Shown here piece by piece: positions 31,161 through 41,709 of a DNA stretch of 64,000 nt. The notes under the pieces were generated by a model. That model was not told the origin of the DNA. It saw nothing but the letters and a program-made list of their open reading frames with translations, and did not search any database. Where the stretch lies: assembly GCA_963788655.1 (NCBI GenBank), contig CAWBHS010000050.1:16954-80953 (forward strand), given 5' to 3'. Made by a program: the position numbers and the translations under genes. This stretch comes from an uncultured Verrucomicrobiae bacterium (GTDB lineage Bacteria > Verrucomicrobiota > Verrucomicrobiia > Limisphaerales > JAFGQR01). Numbering within the stretch: position 1 is the stretch's first letter; each line of letters opens with the position of its first letter.

Positions 31161-32158
31161 TCAATGGCGTTTGGGGCTTGCCGCTGAAGGCGCGAGGCGG
31201 ATCGCCGCTCGGATTCCTTTCAATTGCGCCAACTGTTCGGGCGCCAGGGAACCAATCGGTCCCTGCTCCGGATTCCAATTGGGCCCCATGTCCAGGGTGA
31301 CAACGCCCTCCTTGGCCACCACCGCCTTGACCCAGTCCGCCCATTGTTGAGTGGAAAACCGCGTGTCACGGCGCCCCCAACTGGAACCGACGTACGTCAA
31401 GGCATGCCATTGCGAGCCACTCAACCAACGCGAGGACGGGCGGACGGTCAAAGGCTCGTTCAATTCGCCCGCCGTGTAGTCTTCGGCGTCGGTGTAGTGA
31501 ATGACTCGGACGCCTGGATTGAACGTTACGATGGCCTTTGGGTTGCCGTGCTTGACGGCCTGGGCATACACCTGAGCGATGGCGTTGTTGAAGTGAATGT
31601 GTTGGTAACCGCCGTCAAACCACCACCCGGCCACTTTGTCGCCGTAACGGTCCCGGACCATTCCTGGATGACCTCAGCCCATTTCTTCGCGAACTCGAGG
31701 CTGAGCGGTTGGTCTTGCGGGCCTTCGCGCAACCCGAAAGCGCGCTGGGCCCGGGCATCCCGGTTGGGAACCTGGCACGGCAGGTAAAGCATCAGCTTGA
31801 TTCCCTTGGCGTGAAGCGCGTGGAACAAGTCCAGAGGCAGGTCGCGAGTGGAGCATCTCTCGCCAGGCTGATAACCGGTGTAACGGTTGTAAGTGGCGTT
31901 GGGAGAGTTGAGGTAGCCGGAGTTCTGACCCAGCGTGATGACAAAATACCGCGCGCCGGCTTCGACCAGTTGTTGCGCCAGCACTTCGACGTCGAAGTCC
32001 TTGACCTGCGCGAGTTGCCGGTCATTTCCCGGAAGCAAATGCATGAAGACACCGTAGTGGGCGTCTTTAAACCAGTCCGTGTTTGGATTGTTGGATTCGG
32101 CCTGCCCCAGCGAGGACAAGAGAAGCAGTGGCAGGAGGATGGTGGTGACGCGGTTCAT
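31161..32158 (-). CDS. Alpha-L-fucosidase (GH29)-like protein; frameshift ~31660
   Basis: WFKDAHYGVFMH, FDVE, GARYFVITLGQ, RDLPLDL; then RYGDKVAGWWFDG, EDYTAGE. Confidence 0.75.
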
Positions 32159-33630: not shown

Positions 33631-35697
33631 TCAACTGTGGGGAGGTGTCCAGCGAAACATCATCACGTGGTTCAAACCGGCGTTTTCGAGGAACAGGACA
33701 TACTCACCGTTCTTGCGGAGGGTGACGTTCAGGGCGTTGTCCGAGTCAACGCATCCGCCGCTGCCTTTGAAGCCGTTGATGTCCGGCCGGATCGTGCCGA
33801 CGTATCCGCCGTCCTCCAGCCGATGGACGCGAATAGTCCATAGCCATAAGCGACGAAGAGGTATTTGCCGCGGGCCTGCATTGCCACCGGCGCGCCGCCG
33901 CCATAGCCGGTGTCGGGAGTGTAAGACTTGTCGTTGAGCGGCAGATTGATTTTCCAGCGCTTGATCCTCTTGGTCGGATCGGACCAATGATCGTAGCAGA
34001 CCAGCACGTTGCACGCGTTCTCGTCGGTGCCGGGTGAACCGCCGGCGATCATGATGTCGTCACCAGGGACGTAGAATAGCCGTCGAAGTCGGTCGCCGGT
34101 GAACTCCGGCGGGTACTGGTAAGAAACCTCGGAGGCCCGGCGATAGATGGGATTGCCGCGCGGGTCTATCCCTTCGCAAGGAAGATGGAAGATGGTCCCG
34201 TCTCCCGAGCATTGCCAGATGCCGGCAGCGGCATCCAGGTGCATGAAGCCCCAGCGGGGCTTCCGGTCCACCGAGGCGAACTCCGCAGCGTCTGGCGACA
34301 CCGTCGCCGTTCGTGTCGGTCCAGATGAAGGTTTCGGCGTCCTCCGGCCAGCGTTTGCCGTTCCCGGGGCGCCAGGTGCTGGCACCCGCCACATACCCGC
34401 ACGGGGCCGCCACACAGCCTTGCTCGCCGAACTTGTAGATCTCCAGGTTGCCGGTGCCCTGGGCGCCGCAGTAGAGGAAGAGCTTGCCGCCGATCCGCCG
34501 CACGCCATTGATCAGGCGATGGCTCGGGCCGTGGAGGTCCGTCACGCGGCTGTCGCTGGGATACTTGAACCGATCAACCGTCAGTCCAGCCAGTGACTGC
34601 TCGTGACCAGGCGGCTTGGCTCCAGTCCATGCTGAAGACGTTCTCCTTGGTGTAAACGAGGTTCTCATTGGCCGGGTCGGTGCAGGCCGTATCCAGCCAG
34701 TTGCCCAGGCCGTAAACGTCCCAGAGGCGTTGACCCGAAGGGGAATAGGCTTCGATCAAGGCGTTATACCAGGAGCCAAAGACACTGGCGACGTAGAGAT
34801 TGCCGGCCGCGTCGAAGCCGAGGCCGCGAATCCAATGGAACTTCTGGGGCTGGTATTTTCCCGGCTCGCCCGAAAAGATTCCGCCTTCCGTGCCAAAGGT
34901 GCCCACCTTCTTGGGGGTCCCCGAGACATCGTAGATCCAGACCTGGCTGTGCCGGTTCAACCCGCCCACGAGCAGACGACCCTTCGGATCAAACGTCAGC
35001 GCACAGGGGTTCTCGAAGTCGGTGATCTCCGGCCCGGGCTGACCGTCCTTGGAGAAGGAGATGATCTTCAGGCCGCCGGTAGATCGAACGGCTCCTTGCC
35101 GGGCTTGCCTTGAACGACCCAGATCCGACCGTCAGCACCGACAGCGATCGGTCCCGGGCTCGGGGCGGCGAAGGAGCGAACCTCCTTCATCGTCGCCGTC
35201 TCCAGGACCCGAATTCTGCCTGCCTTGGAATCGCTGAGGTAAAGCTCGCCGCTGCGCAAGGCCAGGCCGTGAATGCTGCCGCCGGTGCTCGGCGTGCGGT
35301 TGTAGGCCTCGTCCCCGAGGCGCGTGCGGAAGAGGCCGACCCCGGTGCCGATGTAAACGTAGGCGTCGTCCACCGCGACCGCGGACGCGCTGCTGCCAAA
35401 CCCGCTGTCATAGTCGTACTTGGTGACGAACTTGCCGGCCTTATACGAGGCGACTCCGCCGTAGCCTTCAGCCACACCCGCGGAGAAAACCGTCCCGTCC
35501 GGCGTCACGGCAATGGCGATGGCGGTGACCGGCACCGATTGGTGCCCCTTCTGAGTGGCGAACGAGTTCGCGAGCCAGGAATGGATGACGGTGCCAGGCA
35601 GGTCGCTCCCCGAAGGCGCGTCCCCGGCTTCGACACGACCCAAGTTGAGCGTGCAGAGGCAGGCCAGCGTTAATTTATGGAAATAGTGTTTTCGCAC
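33631..35697 (-). CDS. Secreted NHL/beta-propeller protein; several frameshifts
   Basis: Signal peptide; AIAVTPDG, IAVGADGRIWV, GLGFDAAGNLYV, FIWTDTNGDG. It starts just after the attC R' box at 35741. Confidence 0.65.
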
Positions 35698-35740
35698 AAA
35701 ATGTCCGTGTTCACTTTCGGACGGAGGCAGCCCTTCCACC

Positions 35741-35833
35741 GCCCAACGTCCCGCATCAGTGACCCCGCGCCACTGATGCTCAGATTGAAACCGCAGCGCC
35801 CTCGCGGGGTTCGCTGCATGCGGTTCGTTAGAC
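35741..35833 (-). other. attC site (cassette 4)
   Basis: R'' GTCTAAC (contains the gene's TAA), internal palindrome CCGCATGCAGCGAACCCCGCG/CGCGGGGTCACTGATGCGG, R' GTTGGGC. Confidence 0.88.
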
Positions 35834-36157
35834 ACGTTTCTTTTCATTTGCAGCTTTCCGAAAGATCACATGCGTTGCGAGGCCAGTGATTATGCCTAGC
35901 ACAAGCCATTGAAGAACTACCGCGAATGGCAATGCGGTCCAGGCGGCGATACCTTCGCTCGGCCTCGATATGAACGCCCATGCGTAAACCAAACCAACAG
36001 CCGGGACATGGATTGCCTCATAGAAGCGGTAACCCGCCGGGTGCTCCGTAATCCAAGTTTGGACTGACTCAATCCAACAAGGAGAAGAGAACACTAATCC
36101 GAGCAAGACGCCCAACAGGCCCGAAACTTTCAAGCGATTCGATAAGGACGGTCGCAT
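35828..36157 (-). CDS. Gene cassette 4: small membrane protein
   Basis: ATG 2 nt after R' GTTAGAC; about 3 hydrophobic segments; stop inside R''. Confidence 0.7.
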   Translation of the reverse strand: MRPSLSNRLKVSGLLGVLLGLVFSSPCWIESVQTWITEHPAGYRFYEAIHVPAVGLVYAWAFISRPSEGIAAWTALPFAVVLQWLVLGIITGLATHVIFRKAANEKKRV

Positions 36158-36159
36158 AC

Positions 36160-36260
36160 GTCTAACGACAAGACCAGCGACGGGAGCCAGCCGCCCCTGA
36201 TGTTCGATTTGTGTCTGCGCTGAACGGCTGGCTCCCGTTCGCTGAACCGTTTGGTTGAAC
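36160..36260 (-). other. attC site (cassette 3)
   Basis: R'' GTTCAAC, palindrome CAGCGAACGGGAGCCAGCCG/CGGCTGGCTCCCGTCGCTG with an extrahelical base, R' GTTAGAC. Confidence 0.88.
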
Positions 36261-36563
36261 AATCTCTTCATCTTTGGCCGCCGAGCTTATCGCATCATAG
36301 GGAAGCAGGAGCGTGTCGATCGCCAAGGAAATCGGCAAATCAACGATCCCCACAATACAAGCGCCTGCCTTCTTCCCGGCTGACCCCTGGAAAGAGCTAC
36401 GGCAAGGTGCCGTGATCAGACCGCCATCGACGCAGGTTGCAGCATATACAGGGGGGAATGGTTCGCTAAGCTCGTGACGCCACGACGTTCTGGTAGCGAT
36501 GGTCCCACATCCCGTGCAGAGGCAGACAAGGCTGGCCGAGACAATGCAAAAACAGGCTTTCAC
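36162..36563 (-). CDS. Gene cassette 3: YceK/YidQ-family lipoprotein
   Basis: Lipobox CTGC-GTI, VYAAT..D, IVDLPISLAIDTLLLPYD; reads through the attC. Confidence 0.8.
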   Translation of the reverse strand: MKACFCIVSASLVCLCTGCGTIATRTSWRHELSEPFPPVYAATCVDGGLITAPCRSSFQGSAGKKAGACIVGIVDLPISLAIDTLLLPYDAISSAAKDEEIVQPNGSANGSQPFSADTNRTSGAAGSRRWSCR

Positions 36564-36571
36564 AAGTATGC

Positions 36572-38791
36572 ACCGGGTAGGTGCAGGCGGTTAGCCCGCC
36601 CACACCCCCCTAAGAACCGTGCGTGAAAGTTTCCCTTCACACGGCTCAAGCCTTTCTAAGGACACGCCCGTGCGGGGTGTCCCGGCAATCTGTTGGATTA
36701 ACGTCAGCATCCTGAGGCCCCTTATACGCTCGCCAGGACCATTCGACCAGTCCTTTCGCACGGCAAGGTCCGCCACGCAAAACAGCGGCGGCGCTCAAAA
36801 TACTGGGTGTAGTTCCGGGTCGTAGGGAGTTGGCCTCCCCCCGGACCTTGATATGACGTTCCAACACCGGTGCGGGCAATGGAATACAGTCGCAGCACCT
36901 TTGCTTCCCCGGTGCGCGGTCCGCATCGCGGGCGAAGAATCCCCAAGTGGTCTCCGATGGCTGAAGTATTTGCGCTTCAGCCAACGCGTAGGATTTCTTG
37001 GGATGTCGTCCGCCGCGCCCAGCGCAGGAGCTGGTAGCGGACGATTCGTTCCATGCGCCAAAACGCTTCGGCCGAACAGCACGTGGCGATGATAGTTGGC
37101 CCAGCCCCGAAGCATCGGGTTGAGCTTTCGGATCAGCGTTTCCGCGCGTTTGTCCGACCGCGCGTTTGATGCACTCGCGGATTTTCTGCACCAACGCCTT
37201 CACCCCGTCCTTGGCGGGTTTGATGAGCAGTTTGTTCCCGTATTTGCGCACGTTCTGTCCCAGAAAGTTGAACCCCGTTTCGTATGTGGGTGATCACGGT
37301 CTTTTGCTCGGAGAGTTCCAGACCGCGTTCGGCCAGGAAGGCCACCACGGCGGGTTTGACGATCTGTTCGAGGGTTTCGCGTTTGCGGGCGGTCACCACG
37401 AAGTCATCCGCGTAACGGATGAAGTTGACCTGGTCGCGTCGTATTTTGATCCGGCTGCGGATCGCCGCTTCCATTCCGTCCAACGTCAGGTTGGCAAGGA
37501 GGGGCGAAATAATCCCGCCCTGTGGGGTGCCTTCCAGCGTCGGGAACAGACGGCCTTTTTCCCAGTAGCCAGCCTCCAGCCATTGGCGTAGCATCCTCTT
37601 GTCCATCGGAATGGACTTGAGAAGCCACGCGTGGCTGATCCGGTCGAAACAGGCTTTGATGTCGCCTTCGAGCACCCAGACCGGCGCGTAGCTTTTGGCC
37701 AGTGCGCAGAAGCACTGGCCGATGGCGTCGGCGCAGGAGCGGCCTTCCCGGAACCCGTAGGAGTTGCGGTCGCCGAGGGTTTCGGCGATGGGTTTGAGGG
37801 CCAGCGCGTGGAGCGCTTGCATGGCGCGGTCCCGCAGGGTGGGGATGCTCAACGGGCGCAGCTTGCCGTTTTTCTTGGGATGTAGTGCCGGCGCAAGGGT
37901 AGCGGCCGGTAACCACGACGTTTCAGGTTCTGTACTGCGGTGAATTTCTGTCTGTCAGTCCTCCATATCACGTTGTCCACACCGGGGGTTTTGGCCCCCT
38001 TGTTTCCCGTCACCCGCTTGACGGCCAAAAGCTTGGCCGAGCGCGAGTGGGTGAGCAGCCACGACAGGGCTTTGGCCTTGCCGTGTTGTCCTGCTCGGAT
38101 TGCCTTTGCAATACGCAACTGTAGCCTCCTGACATCACGCCGGACTTTGGGCCAATCAATGGCTTTCCAGTTCGACGCTTTGTTGGAGGACGCACCAAAG
38201 GATCGCTCCTTCGTCATTTGCTTTTCCTCCTCAAGGATGGTTCGACGGTTTCTCTTGCAAAGAGAGACCTGACCGACGTGGGCATATCCGGTCGCATTAC
38301 ACACCGGCCTTGGCTTGTTCGGTCTTCTCAATGCTGCCTCCGCTTCCCTGCCTTGCGGTTGGGGCGGCCACGACCGGCGTGGCCCGGAGCGACAGCGTTT
38401 CCATGTTCTGCATTCGATACGGGAGAGGTTAGGTCCGCTCTGCTACACCGGCAGTGCTTGTGAGTGTGCGCCGGGCCACGTTAGACAACCCGGACTCGAC
38501 TGCTTGCCATTTTGGCTCGAGCCTTGAACAGCCTCTTATGGCTCGTTTCTCTTGACGATGCTTAAAAGCGTTTATTGGTTTAACCATACTCTCGGACTCT
38601 AGCGCTCCCCCGGCTTGAGGCTGCCAGGTTCGCTACATTACCGGGAAGGCTTCATACCCCTGACAGTAGATCTCGACGATCGGACAGCCCGCCAGACGCA
38701 TGCTTCCGTGGAGTACCTGCGGACACACGCAGGGCTTGGTCAGGATTCATAACTCCCGCCAAGCAGTACCGAATACAACTTCATGTCACAA
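36572..38791 (-). mobile_element. Group II intron (CL1/IIB-like) inserted in an attC R' box
   Basis: 5' end TTGTGACATGAAG; EBS1 loop CTAACG at 38479-38484; domain V GAGCCGTGTGAAGGGAAACTTTCACGCACGGTTC (36614-36647); domain VI with bulged A at 36578. The flanks rejoin as GTTAG|GC. Confidence 0.92.
36722..38217 (-). CDS. ltrA: Group II intron reverse transcriptase/maturase (RVT_N + RT + X, no HNH); several frameshifts
   Basis: GAGGAG RBS; WKAIDW..VRRLQLRIAKA, NKGAKTPGVD, IPTLRDRAMQ, SYGFR.GRS, EGDIKACFD, GTPQGGIISPLLAN, RYADDF, LRGWANY, HIKVRGEAN. Confidence 0.92.
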
Positions 38792-38885
38792 CTAACGGTC
38801 AGGTCACCGACGGCGGCCCCTCCGTGACTCCCGAGTTGCCCGGCGGCCTTACGGGGCCGCCATTCGGTGAACTGGCTGGTTCGGT
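38792..38885 (-). other. attC site (cassette 2), R' interrupted by the intron
   Basis: R'' ACCGAAC, palindrome CACCGAATGGCGGCCCC/GGGGCCGCCGTCGGTG, R' GTTAG|intron|GC. Confidence 0.85.
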
Positions 38886-39134
38886 GATGATCCTCAATTT
38901 CCAGAAGCGGTAACTAGCTCCGAGGGCAAAACCAACCGTCGCCAACGCCAGGAAAAACAGGCCGAGGCTCTCAATGGCATTCTCGCGCGTATTCAATCCA
39001 AATATCTCCGCAAATCTCTGGACCGTATCGCCAACGAGACAGATCGGAAAACCAACCAGCATAGCAATGATCGCGATGGTCAAGCCGGACCAGACAGCCG
39101 AACCAAGCAACGCACTGGTGTGGGGTGTTGTCAT
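38799..39134 (-). CDS. Gene cassette 2: small two-TM membrane protein
   Basis: ATG shortly after R' GTTTGGC; two hydrophobic helices; the tail is encoded by the attC. Confidence 0.65.
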   Translation of the reverse strand: MTTPHTSALLGSAVWSGLTIAIIAMLVGFPICLVGDTVQRFAEIFGLNTRENAIESLGLFFLALATVGFALGASYRFWKLRIITEPASSPNGGPVRPPGNSGVTEGPPSVT

Positions 39135-39148
39135 AAGTGACGCATCAC

Positions 39149-39274
39149 GCCAAACGATAGAACTCACCGAATGCCGCCGGGAACAGGCGCTGGCAGCGAG
39201 TCCAACATCCGAAGAATTCTGCGCCGCGAAACTGCAGCGCGTGGCCGCAGTTCAGGGCAGAGATCTGGTTCAGC
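39149..39274 (-). other. attC site (cassette 1)
   Basis: R'' GCTGAAC 4 nt after the stop, imperfect internal palindrome, R' GTTTGGC. Confidence 0.7.
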
Positions 39275-39278
39275 GTTT

Positions 39279-39736
39279 TCATGTCTGTGGTGGACGCACA
39301 AATAAGCTGCCGAAGGCCAAAGCGACCGACAAGCTGTTGGCGGCACAAAGCCACCAGAACACTCGCCTACCGATCTTCTGTCGAAATGCGTATCGCAGCA
39401 CAAGCCACTCCAGAATGCCGTTAATAAAAACTGCAAACAGGCAAGTCGCTGTCCAAGTGCCGGGATTGAAAGTCCCGATGTCAAAAATCTTATAGAGGAT
39501 GAGGCCAGGGAAATACTCCCACGCGATGCCGACAACTGGAATGAGGATGGCGCCAGCAATGCCGATGCGGCATTCATGCTCAAGTCGGCAACGACACACA
39601 TGCGCAAACTCAATGTGGTCAACCAGCGCACAAAGAAAAACTCCACGACAAGGCCCAACCCGATGGCCCACCAAGAGAATAACCGCTGTTCCAGAAACAG
39701 CGCGGGCCAGACGACATCAGCGAAAATGGATGTCAT
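39279..39736 (-). CDS. Gene cassette 1: membrane protein; frameshift ~39555
   Basis: ADVVWPALFL...MNAASALL joins GAILIPVVGIAWE...WWLCAANSLSV. Confidence 0.7.
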
Positions 39737-39783
39737 GTGTGCAAGCGGTCAATGCGCCGAATGCTGTTTCGACGTACCAAGGG

Positions 39784-39842
39784 GTTGAACAACAGAATTA
39801 GGCAGAAAAAGCGCTGGCCTTATTTCGTTGGGCAGAATTTCC
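39784..39842 (-). other. attI-like site heading the cassette array
   Basis: Minus strand TTCTGCCCAAC...TTCTGCCTAAT-TCTGTT-GTTCAAC. The R box matches the reverse complement of cassette 1 R'' at 6/7; direct repeats upstream; no attC palindrome. Confidence 0.55.
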
Positions 39843-39942
39843 AATTCCATCACGTATGAATTCAAGATCACGCTCTTAGAAAGTCAATCCCTGTTTCCCA
39901 CCGCGATCCAGGCATCCAGGCGAAAGTTTCCGCAGGCTTACC

Positions 39943-40287
39943 CTACCAGTGGTGTCTCTTTACGTTTCCAGTCACGTCATCCACATGGATAAAAAGAGTG
40001 CCATCAGGCGTGGGTGGGATCACTTCGAAAACAACCATCCACTCTCGAGTGGGTAATCCTCGAAATTCGTAAACTGCCTCACACTCCGAGAAACGCTTTA
40101 GTTTGTATCCTTTGCTGGTAAGCCAATCCCTCGCAATCTGGCGCACCTCGGTTTCACTCAGACGCTGCTTCCAGTCCGCCAACACAGGAGACGAACGTGG
40201 TGGGGGAGGCTGATAGACAGCACGGTGGCGCAAACAGCCAGCAGCCAATACCAAAACCATCAGACTGCTTTTGGCGAAGATCCTCAC
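39943..40287 (-). CDS. Small lipoprotein (PepSY-like C-terminus)
   Basis: Lipobox LAAGC; W.V.F...IHVDDVTG; GTGA overlap with the upstream stop. Confidence 0.55.
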   Translation of the reverse strand: MRIFAKSSLMVLVLAAGCLRHRAVYQPPPPRSSPVLADWKQRLSETEVRQIARDWLTSKGYKLKRFSECEAVYEFRGLPTREWMVVFEVIPPTPDGTLFIHVDDVTGNVKRHHW

Positions 40288-41459
40288 GGAACGATCTTCA
40301 GTTGCTGCAACAATTCCATGAGGCAATCGCGCATCGCAGCCTCGTAATCCTTGGCGGCGGTAATTCGCAGCAGTTCCAGGTTGGGTTTGGCGGGAGAATG
40401 GTTGATGCGCGTCTTGCCCATATCATCGACTGCGACGCCGGCTGGCACAAACGTGAACACCGGCGTTGGTTGACAGTCTGCCGGTAGCTTGGCTGCTGAA
40501 TGCCAGCCATCTTGCCGCCGGTAAATGCTCCGGCCGGCGGCGTGCAGCAGGCTGGCGGTACACCACATATTGCGGTCCATTTTCCAGACGAGCTGCCGCC
40601 AGGGACGCAGGTTCTGTCGCATGGCTTGCAGCGGATTCAGTTCGTCGGGACGCACGGTTTGCAGCGCATAGATGAAGAAGTTCTGCAAGGCCGGCGGGGC
40701 GGTTTCGAGCACGTCGGCCTGATGGAATTTCCAATAGCTGCTGTACACGGTATTGGATGCCCCCCGTTGGATGGGAAAGCATGGGCACCAATAGATCGGC
40801 AGCCCGGAGCGCATCAGCCCCACATACGCGTGCGGATCAAGCTGCACGTTCCATTCCGTGCCGCCGGCATCGGCGTTGCCCATGTTGAGATACATCCGAC
40901 CTACCCCGCGGCGGAGCAACTCGGGCTCGCGATTGTAGGCCGCGCAAAGGTCGCGGGCGCTCCCGGTGGCAATGATCGTGACCGGTTCGCGCGAAGTGCG
41001 CAGGACGGTCAGCAACAATTCGACCGCCGCCTGGAATTGCGCCGGCCGGCGGCGTCCGTCGTCTTGCGGGGAAGCGAGTTTCTGGTCCAAGCCGATGGCG
41101 TACGGCACCGACCGCCCGGTCAGTTGTTCCATTTGCTGGACGGGCACACGCCCCGGCATTTGCAATTGCTTCTCACCCTGGTCCAGCAGGATGGCTTTCA
41201 CGTCCAATTCCGGGAGGGCAAAGAGCGTGGCCAGATCGAAATGGTCGTCCGGATCAACGTGCGGATGAAACAGGTCGGTGGAATAGATAACCGGCACGCG
41301 CGGATCGGGCGAACTGGCTGCTTCAGCCGCGCTGGCCGGGAGCAGGGACATGACCAGCAGCGGGCAAAACAAAATTTTGAAAGTCCGGGATGAATAGTAA
41401 CTTACCCAAGGCCAGCGGCCGACCGCGCTCCGCCAGAATCGATGGTTCAAAATGTGCAT
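40284..41459 (-). CDS. Secreted nucleoside hydrolase-like protein
   Basis: VIYSTDLFHPHVDPDDHFDL, IIATGS, EWNVQLDP. Confidence 0.7.
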   Translation of the reverse strand: MHILNHRFWRSAVGRWPWVSYYSSRTFKILFCPLLVMSLLPASAAEAASSPDPRVPVIYSTDLFHPHVDPDDHFDLATLFALPELDVKAILLDQGEKQLQMPGRVPVQQMEQLTGRSVPYAIGLDQKLASPQDDGRRRPAQFQAAVELLLTVLRTSREPVTIIATGSARDLCAAYNREPELLRRGVGRMYLNMGNADAGGTEWNVQLDPHAYVGLMRSGLPIYWCPCFPIQRGASNTVYSSYWKFHQADVLETAPPALQNFFIYALQTVRPDELNPLQAMRQNLRPWRQLVWKMDRNMWCTASLLHAAGRSIYRRQDGWHSAAKLPADCQPTPVFTFVPAGVAVDDMGKTRINHSPAKPNLELLRITAAKDYEAAMRDCLMELLQQLKIVP

Positions 41460-41538
41460 GATTAAAAAGTGTGATCGGGCCTGATTATTCTATCCAACCA
41501 CGATTGGTTCCGGCGCGATGAAGCCCCTTCCAGAACCT

Positions 41539-41709
41539 GGTAGGGCGAGACTCCGTCGAGCCGTGATTTCCCAGAGCGTGTCCGCCCAATCAATTACCGC
41601 GCAGAGGAAGATCATTGATATTCGAACACCGAAGGCTTCCCGCGTTGACATTGTCGGGCAGGTGGAAACGACGCGGAAAAACTTGGGCTCGACTGAGTCT
41701 CGTCCTACC
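41539..41709. repeat. Inverted REP pair
   Basis: GGTAGGGCGAGACTCCGTCGAGCC ... GGCTCGACTGAGTCTCGTCCTACC. Confidence 0.8.

Follow-up and report, generated by a model that had tools for sequence, protein, structure and literature searches.

How a group II intron comes to lie inside an integron attC site, on the same strand as the cassettes, is the question raised by a locus in the genome of an uncultured Verrucomicrobiae bacterium. The window is the whole stretch of DNA analysed, 64,000 nt of contig CAWBHS010000050.1 (assembly GCA_963788655.1), and the features of the locus are collected in Table 1. The reading favoured here, with a probability of about 85%, is that the intron belongs to a CL1-like/IIB lineage without endonuclease (En) that homes to the R' box of attC on the top strand by base pairing.

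Table 1. Coordinates of the intron, its RNA parts and the surrounding cassette array in the window.
Feature	Position	Strand	Remarks
Group II intron, IIB-type RNA, CL1-like protein	36572..38791	-	2220 nt, UUGUG...CCGGU ends
Domains V-VI, AGC triad	36572..36649	-	Rfam Intron_gpII match
Intron-encoded RT/maturase	36722..38217	-	RVT_N, RVT_1, GIIM; no HNH; frameshifted as assembled
EBS3 column	38443	-	Intron nt 349; covariation z 8.3, 65% vs 33%
EBS1 hairpin	38471..38493	-	Loop covaries with exon across relatives
EBS1 CUAACG	38479-38484	-	Intron nt 308-313
EBS2 GUCAAG	38551..38556	-	Intron nt 236-241; position from covariation
Domain I region	38602..38734	-	Rfam group-II-D1D4-7 match
IBS1 CGTTAG	38792..38797	-	6/6 pairs with EBS1
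IBS2 CCTGAC, L'-R' spacer	38798..38803	-	5/6 pairs with EBS2
Interrupted attC	38792..38885	-	R'' 38879-38885, L''/L' stem, R' bases GTTAG 38792-38796
Unoccupied attC, R' GTTTGGC	39149..39274	-	73.7 bits, outside training set
Unoccupied attC with perfect IBS1 CGTTAG	36160..36260	-	Training site
Unoccupied attC, CGTTGG	35741..35833	-	Training site
Upstream cassette ORF	38799..39167	-	122 aa, no family; stops 7 nt before intron
Downstream cassette ORF	36162..36563	-	133 aa, weak DUF1375/YceK-like lipoprotein; starts 8 nt past intron

The interrupted site has the R'', L'', L' and R' boxes of an attC, a bottom-strand hairpin and a place in an array with short co-oriented ORFs. The original prediction, that the intron splits an R' box as CGTTAG/GC in the orientation of the cassettes, was confirmed at both exon ends: the 5' exon ends in CGTTAG and the 3' exon starts with GCATAC, the last two R' bases, GC (36570-36571), lying beyond the intron. 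That the flank is an attC was borne out by a model match at 38790-38885 (41.4 bits, E 1.4e-7); another model, for which most training sites were deltaproteobacterial, gave E 2e-4. Both models were self-built and are not that of IntegronFinder; they took the place of an attC heuristic that at its first settings missed two real sites. The first model was trained on 30 unoccupied sites of the host genome. The four attC sites form one co-oriented array, and the empty CGTTAG R' box at 36162-36167 lies where it had been reported. A search for IntI found no match on the window contig and three matches above the cut-off in the genome, where IntI adjoins other arrays. The insertion point lies between two ORFs and not inside one; with the ORFs ending and starting so close to the intron (Table 1), splicing would bring them back to close spacing and would rebuild no coding sequence. 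Each of the two cassette ORFs continues across its attC, the downstream one terminating at the TAG that belongs to the next R' box. A sigma-70 scan of 35600-41600 found no promoter.

The intron has the hallmarks of group II: domains V-VI with the catalytic triad, domain I and an RT/maturase ORF. The Rfam model that detects its domain I also matches CL1-like plasmid introns and does not match the IIC plasmid intron. Three observations back its limits: nine complete sister copies whose flanks can be read on either side share its ends, the first intron base covaries with the penultimate one (U/G in 53 and G/A in 45 among 104), and the cassette of one sister copy also occurs as an intron-free allele. 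The hairpin with the CUAACG loop is present at the predicted place. The position of EBS2 follows from covariation with z about 4-11 in four groups of relatives. At the EBS3 column of the window copy a G faces the +1 G, so that no Watson-Crick pair forms there, and the adjoining C may be the real +1 partner; in the contigs of some relatives one base is absent here. Folding of the whole of domain I was uninformative (z -1.5).

As anticipated, the domain search of the RT returned the RVT_N extension together with RVT_1 and GIIM, and HNH was not found. The first reading of the sequence overlooked that the ORF carries 12-13 one- or two-base indels, nearly all insertions, relative to two close relatives. 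A gene near the intron on the same contig shows 5 extra-base gaps versus 1 when set against its paralogue. As the ORF-less sister copies are nearly identical (1-13 substitutions, 0-1 indels) and this neighbouring gene is rich in gaps, a local assembly error is a plausible source of the RT indels. Several genes of the window (31161-32158, 33729-35847 and 39164-39736) appear to be broken up into frames that overlap, a pattern consistent with local indel errors. Intact RT ORFs of 496 aa are present in the sister copies on contigs C44 and C99. Among the public sequencing runs searched, none contained more than 10% of the words; the contigs of four of them came from relatives and showed no spliced exon junction.

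With the intact sister RT from C44 as query, the nearest solved RT was 6me0 (E 2.6e-167), which we take to be CL1, and IIC RTs followed at about 1e-36. In an RT tree of 84 rows, which has no CL2 reference, the window RT joins Verrucomicrobiota introns in a clade of 10 rows (SH-aLRT 100). This clade is nested in one with CL1-like plasmid introns (support 99), which also holds an En+ protein of 574 aa from E. coli, presumably EcI5/CL1. Five IIC rows, one of them integron-borne on the opposite strand, all lie far from the window RT; placement in a phylogeny, proposed beforehand as a refutation check, thus gave no grouping with class IIC. On the RNA side, EBS1, EBS2, EBS3 and delta' were each placed at the level of the lineage by covariation with exon or partner bases. 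In the passages available of PMC3898094, EBS1, EBS2 and EBS3 with a delta-delta' contact in the coordination loop make up the IIB arrangement. The window intron lineage shows these IIB features, the AGC triad included, the EBS3 column of the window copy being mismatched. Membership in IIC was rejected on the distance of the RT from IIC in the PDB search and the tree. The geometry of IIC-attC introns was likewise rejected, the window intron lying on the top strand, in R' and co-oriented, with the plasmid intron L188 as the contrasting case; so was their pairing scheme (EBS1 of 3-4 nt, no EBS2), in view of a 6-nt EBS1 and a covarying EBS2. As far as sequence comparison can tell, the window intron is one that works like a homing IIB intron and not like an IIC-attC intron.

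The host genome holds 13 starts of the intron family, comprising four full-length copies, seven that lack the ORF and measure about 817 nt, a fragment of 262 nt and a copy truncated by a contig end; the RT of the full-length copy on C46 has one stop. The 12 visible 5' flanks read CGTTAG (nine), CGTTGG (two) and CGTTAG plus G (one). The attC model matches at 11 of them, and at the remaining one, on C80, only the right half of a site is present. GTTC was found at none of 11 occupied attC and at 19 of 40 unoccupied sites of a strict census (p=0.004), as the EBS1 sequence predicts. The ORF-less copies lie on C80, C59 (two), C49, C17, C93 and C9. Compared with the C44-type intron they agree at 340/351 positions over the first 350 nt but at only 168/212 over the part that follows, which points to a mosaic origin. 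One cassette occurs behind an intron and also intron-free behind another attC, where it is joined exactly at CGTTAG with no duplication; such shared cassettes behind differing attC suggest cassette shuffling.

It could be argued that the intron inserts at any site matching its EBS and that the attC copies survive as the harmless ones, attC lying between genes; the half-site and irregular insertions would agree with this. Selection of this kind is very improbable. The genome offers 974 CGTTAG and 11,438 CGTTGG, among which other intergenic sites should be equally harmless, and still nearly all flanks are attC. This already holds for ORF-less copies separated by a handful of substitutions, and EBS1 is matched to R' across phyla. 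A few insertions followed by spread through IntI cassette shuffling, or by repeats of the assembly, is an explanation of almost negligible probability. In its favour, the assembly has 115 contigs, and the full-length copies at C44:29704 and C46:2428 have 1.3 kb of upstream flank in common (97% identical). Against it, the remaining copies have different flanks to either side and the attC sequences vary, a diversity by which it is already largely refuted, and the pattern recurs in many independent genomes. The downstream cassettes of the C44 and C46 copies differ; recombination between intron copies, a double insertion and misassembly are candidate readings of this pair.

Pairing between EBS1 and the exon was followed in 160 relative loci picked by RT similarity alone (80 of 272 and 80 of 582). 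No 5' end could be located in 36 of the 160, which were left out, and four weak starts were included manually. Two loci, L084 and L134, were discarded because their ends come from different copies, and L044 and L088 have less than 6 nt of flank. The usable 5' junctions were those of 120 relatives and 10 genome copies. L129 and L154, with GTT at -6 in a repeat or other context, were put by hand in the non-attC group, and the -5/-6 definition used below does not cover L052 and L141. Among 50 distinct non-attC relatives, 5.19 of the 6 EBS1 positions pair with the exon of the same intron, versus 3.42 +/- 0.11 for shuffled pairs; none of 2000 shuffles reached this value (maximum 3.81). At the level of covariation this proves the hairpin loop to be EBS1. 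GTT stands at -5 or -6 in 73 junctions; EBS1 ends in AACG in 50/50 of the -5 junctions and in AAC in 23/23 of the -6 junctions, counts that overstate the number of events because kin are not independent. A compensatory change is seen in L111, L113 and L193, where EBS1 is CGAACG and the intron sits in CGTTCG. As had been proposed, the flanks of close relatives were scored with attC models, and they do sit at attC R' boxes: among loci with at least 100 nt of flank, 35 of 56 GTT junctions and 0 of 49 others coincide with the end of a model match. The 21 GTT junctions with no model match include some weak attC and many half sites. A further 23 attC-like sites in the flanks of 47 loci of the deltaproteobacterial branch are all on the intron strand, and IntI adjoins the relatives L028 and L053. 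Exceptions are the off-by-one junctions of L052, C9:105880, L241, L246 and L251, and the introns L032, L051, L103 and L120, which have an attC-type EBS1 and no GTT.

The attC habit occurs in two PVC/Acidobacteriota branches and one Desulfobacterota-rich branch, and the other CL1-like relatives have unrelated targets; the habit may have arisen once or more than once. In one branch nested among the attC-targeting PVC introns (L123, L124, L125, L129, L136, L141, L151, L158, L175 and L176), the target has shifted to short tandem repeats: the 5' exon carries units of about 9-11 nt joined head to tail, which EBS1 matches. A literature search on repeat-targeting introns found nothing relevant. The intron 5' region is matched in 20 of 301 sampled genomes of the host's order, the host included. 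A deltaproteobacterial chromosome of 8.2 Mb (G302:C1; L038 and L238-L249) carries 13 intron starts, mostly with no RT gene. Of 12 further starts there, seven have their junction at a model match, and several are irregular or off by one base. One start on this chromosome follows the 3' end of another intron.

As comparison of these loci shows, RNA-DNA pairing sets both the strand and the insertion base. In the window case EBS1 would pair with C-GTTRR and insertion would follow base 5 of R'; in the Desulfobacterota-rich branch EBS1 would pair with GTTRRR and insertion would follow base 6. The C before GTT is invariant in the -5 groups (27/27 and 18/18), and it may help to tell the top-strand R' from the look-alike bottom-strand R''. 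EBS3 pairs with exon base +1, as its covariation shows, and EBS2 would pair loosely with the L'-R' spacer. Within the attC groups the EBS2 pairing is weak (about 3.5/6), and 102 other sites of the genome, which may include attC missed by the census, pair with EBS1 and EBS2 as well as the median occupied site. With about 100 equally paired sites elsewhere, pairing is not sufficient and a further determinant must be inferred. The prediction that EBS1 targets the R' box therefore stands as regards covariation with the exon and falls short as regards EBS1 acting alone, EBS2 and this further determinant contributing.

The further determinant could be DNA structure, the target being picked mainly by the top-strand hairpin of attC and EBS1 fixing only the cut position. 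This has been proposed for UHB.I2 and has a parallel in the IIC-attC introns. It would account for the unused non-attC sites, most occupied sites are full hairpins, and the short tandem repeats occupied by the nested sister branch may be structured too. It is nevertheless improbable, as insertions occur in half sites that lack the left arm (at C80 and at several among the 21 loci with no model match), the hairpin stem would bury IBS1 and IBS2, and the avoidance of GTTC follows EBS1. Moreover, 13 of those 21 junctions keep an L'-like motif, versus a background of 15%. Acceptance of half sites together with retention of this motif makes RT contacts on the L' box likelier than reading of the hairpin. 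Under the pairing model the RT would thus probably add contacts on L', and the cDNA would be primed at the replication fork, as in known En-minus IIB introns. Intact RTs elsewhere in the genome would serve the ORF-less and frameshifted copies in trans.

A replication-strand cause of the orientation, with the top strand single-stranded at the fork, is not supported by the skew data. The bottom strands of chromosomal attC are mostly on the leading-strand template according to the passages available of PMC5371416. GC skew in the host genome is weak and inconsistent, and 20 further stretches gave mixed or near-zero skews. On G302:C1 the 13 starts all keep to the C-rich strand of each replichore, contrary to what a replication-strand cause predicts.

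IntI crosses over in attC at G^TT. Insertion would take place 3' of this crossover, leaving the attC hairpin and its GTT intact. The predicted bottom-strand hairpin is equally stable with the intron (-25.6 kcal/mol) and without it (-25.9 kcal/mol); with the fold and the GTT kept, the attC should stay usable and the intron should count as part of the downstream cassette. It would sit at the 5' end of that cassette, could be transcribed with the array, and is predicted to be spliced out of cassette transcripts. A wider, speculative and rather unlikely reading is that these introns are a second, RNA-programmed class of integron parasite that acts on the array itself. IntI would move the intron together with the downstream cassette, of which it forms the 5' end, and near-identical copies, including those in half sites outside arrays, would serve as portable homology that swaps or creates attC-gene junctions with no need of IntI. 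The portable-homology part is drawn from the C44 and C46 copies, which share the upstream cassette and differ downstream. If true, it would bear on how cassettes are made.

Other introns are present in the same genome. A second, unrelated family (L014, G000:C38:56051-58223 on the plus strand; L015, C24:8210-6026 on the minus strand; partial copies at C59:56210 and on C62) matches Rfam D1D4-6, has an RT about 31% identical and sits on a long branch of the tree. It lies in the left arm of attC (L'' box), also on the top strand, its candidate EBS1 CCAUCG matches two of three flanks, and it is at a guess class E. A third group II intron occurs in five identical-looking copies (G000:C39, C60 twice, C68 and C107), with an RT 34% identical and 3' exons that all start with TGG.

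In the review passages available, attC targeting is tied to class C introns that read the bottom-strand hairpin (PMC4424553, PMC3001079). Here a widespread IIB lineage, with hosts in Verrucomicrobiota, Planctomycetota, Acidobacteriota and Desulfobacterota-type bacteria, would reach attC from the other strand by programmable pairing, an example of a homing intron turned specialist on a repeated site. The rule is simple, the frame of EBS1 setting the insertion base, and it might offer a cassette-specific delivery tool. Long introns of this kind split arrays in annotation.

IIC-attC introns (S.ma.I2 and relatives; plasmid L188) resemble the window intron in being En-less and in using attC as a repeated landing site. 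As described in the available text of PMC3001079, PMC4424553 and PMC8876359, they belong to class C, lie on the bottom strand opposite to cassette transcription, enter R'' at TTGT/T with a short EBS1 plus the hairpin and no EBS2, come between a gene and its attC, and block upstream transcription. In contrast, the window intron is CL1-like, on the top strand, in R', and has EBS1-3. An Enterobacter cloacae intron cited in PMC7923331 is co-oriented on the attC top strand like the window intron, but it is a class C intron and a single case. The homing IIB introns EcI5, RmInt1 and TeI3c/4c share with the window intron EBS1/2/3 pairing plus a few RT contacts, and are described in the available parts of PMC3898094 as using fork-primed cDNA when En is missing and ORF-less copies helped by an RT in trans; unlike those of the window intron, the targets given there are not integron sites.

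A printed case at attC is UHB.I2 (Sonbol and Siam 2021, Mob DNA 12:8, PMC7923331), a single En-minus CL1/IIB1 intron. Its available description agrees with the window intron in IIB1 RNA, a CL1 or, in the window intron, CL1-like protein without endonuclease, a length of about 2.2 kb and co-orientation with the cassettes. Its ends, UUGCG..GU, also start with U and end with GU, and its 5' sequence, by eye, has the same hairpin in the same place with a loop ending in AACG. In the same text its authors give no exon conservation, a position 'just downstream' of attC and no EBS3 bulge, and they propose a role for a top-strand hairpin. Likened by description, UHB.I2 lying outside the RT tree, the two are likely to be of common ancestry. 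The independent, non-IIC route to integrons of the original prediction is therefore supported as a route, a sense-strand CL1/IIB1 case at attC having already been printed (PMC7923331). The passages available of PMC4424553, PMC3001079, PMC8876359 and PMC8919778 hold only IIC-attC introns or a bare citation of that paper. A literature search outside the subscription journals turned up, beyond PMC7923331, nothing that describes the lineage or EBS1-R' pairing. Relative to the available account of UHB.I2, the present analysis adds the lineage, the exact site inside R', the EBS1 frame rule, EBS2, EBS3 and the ORF-less copies. The observation itself is well supported; its new part is the breadth of the lineage and the pairing rule, with UHB.I2 as the one printed precedent.
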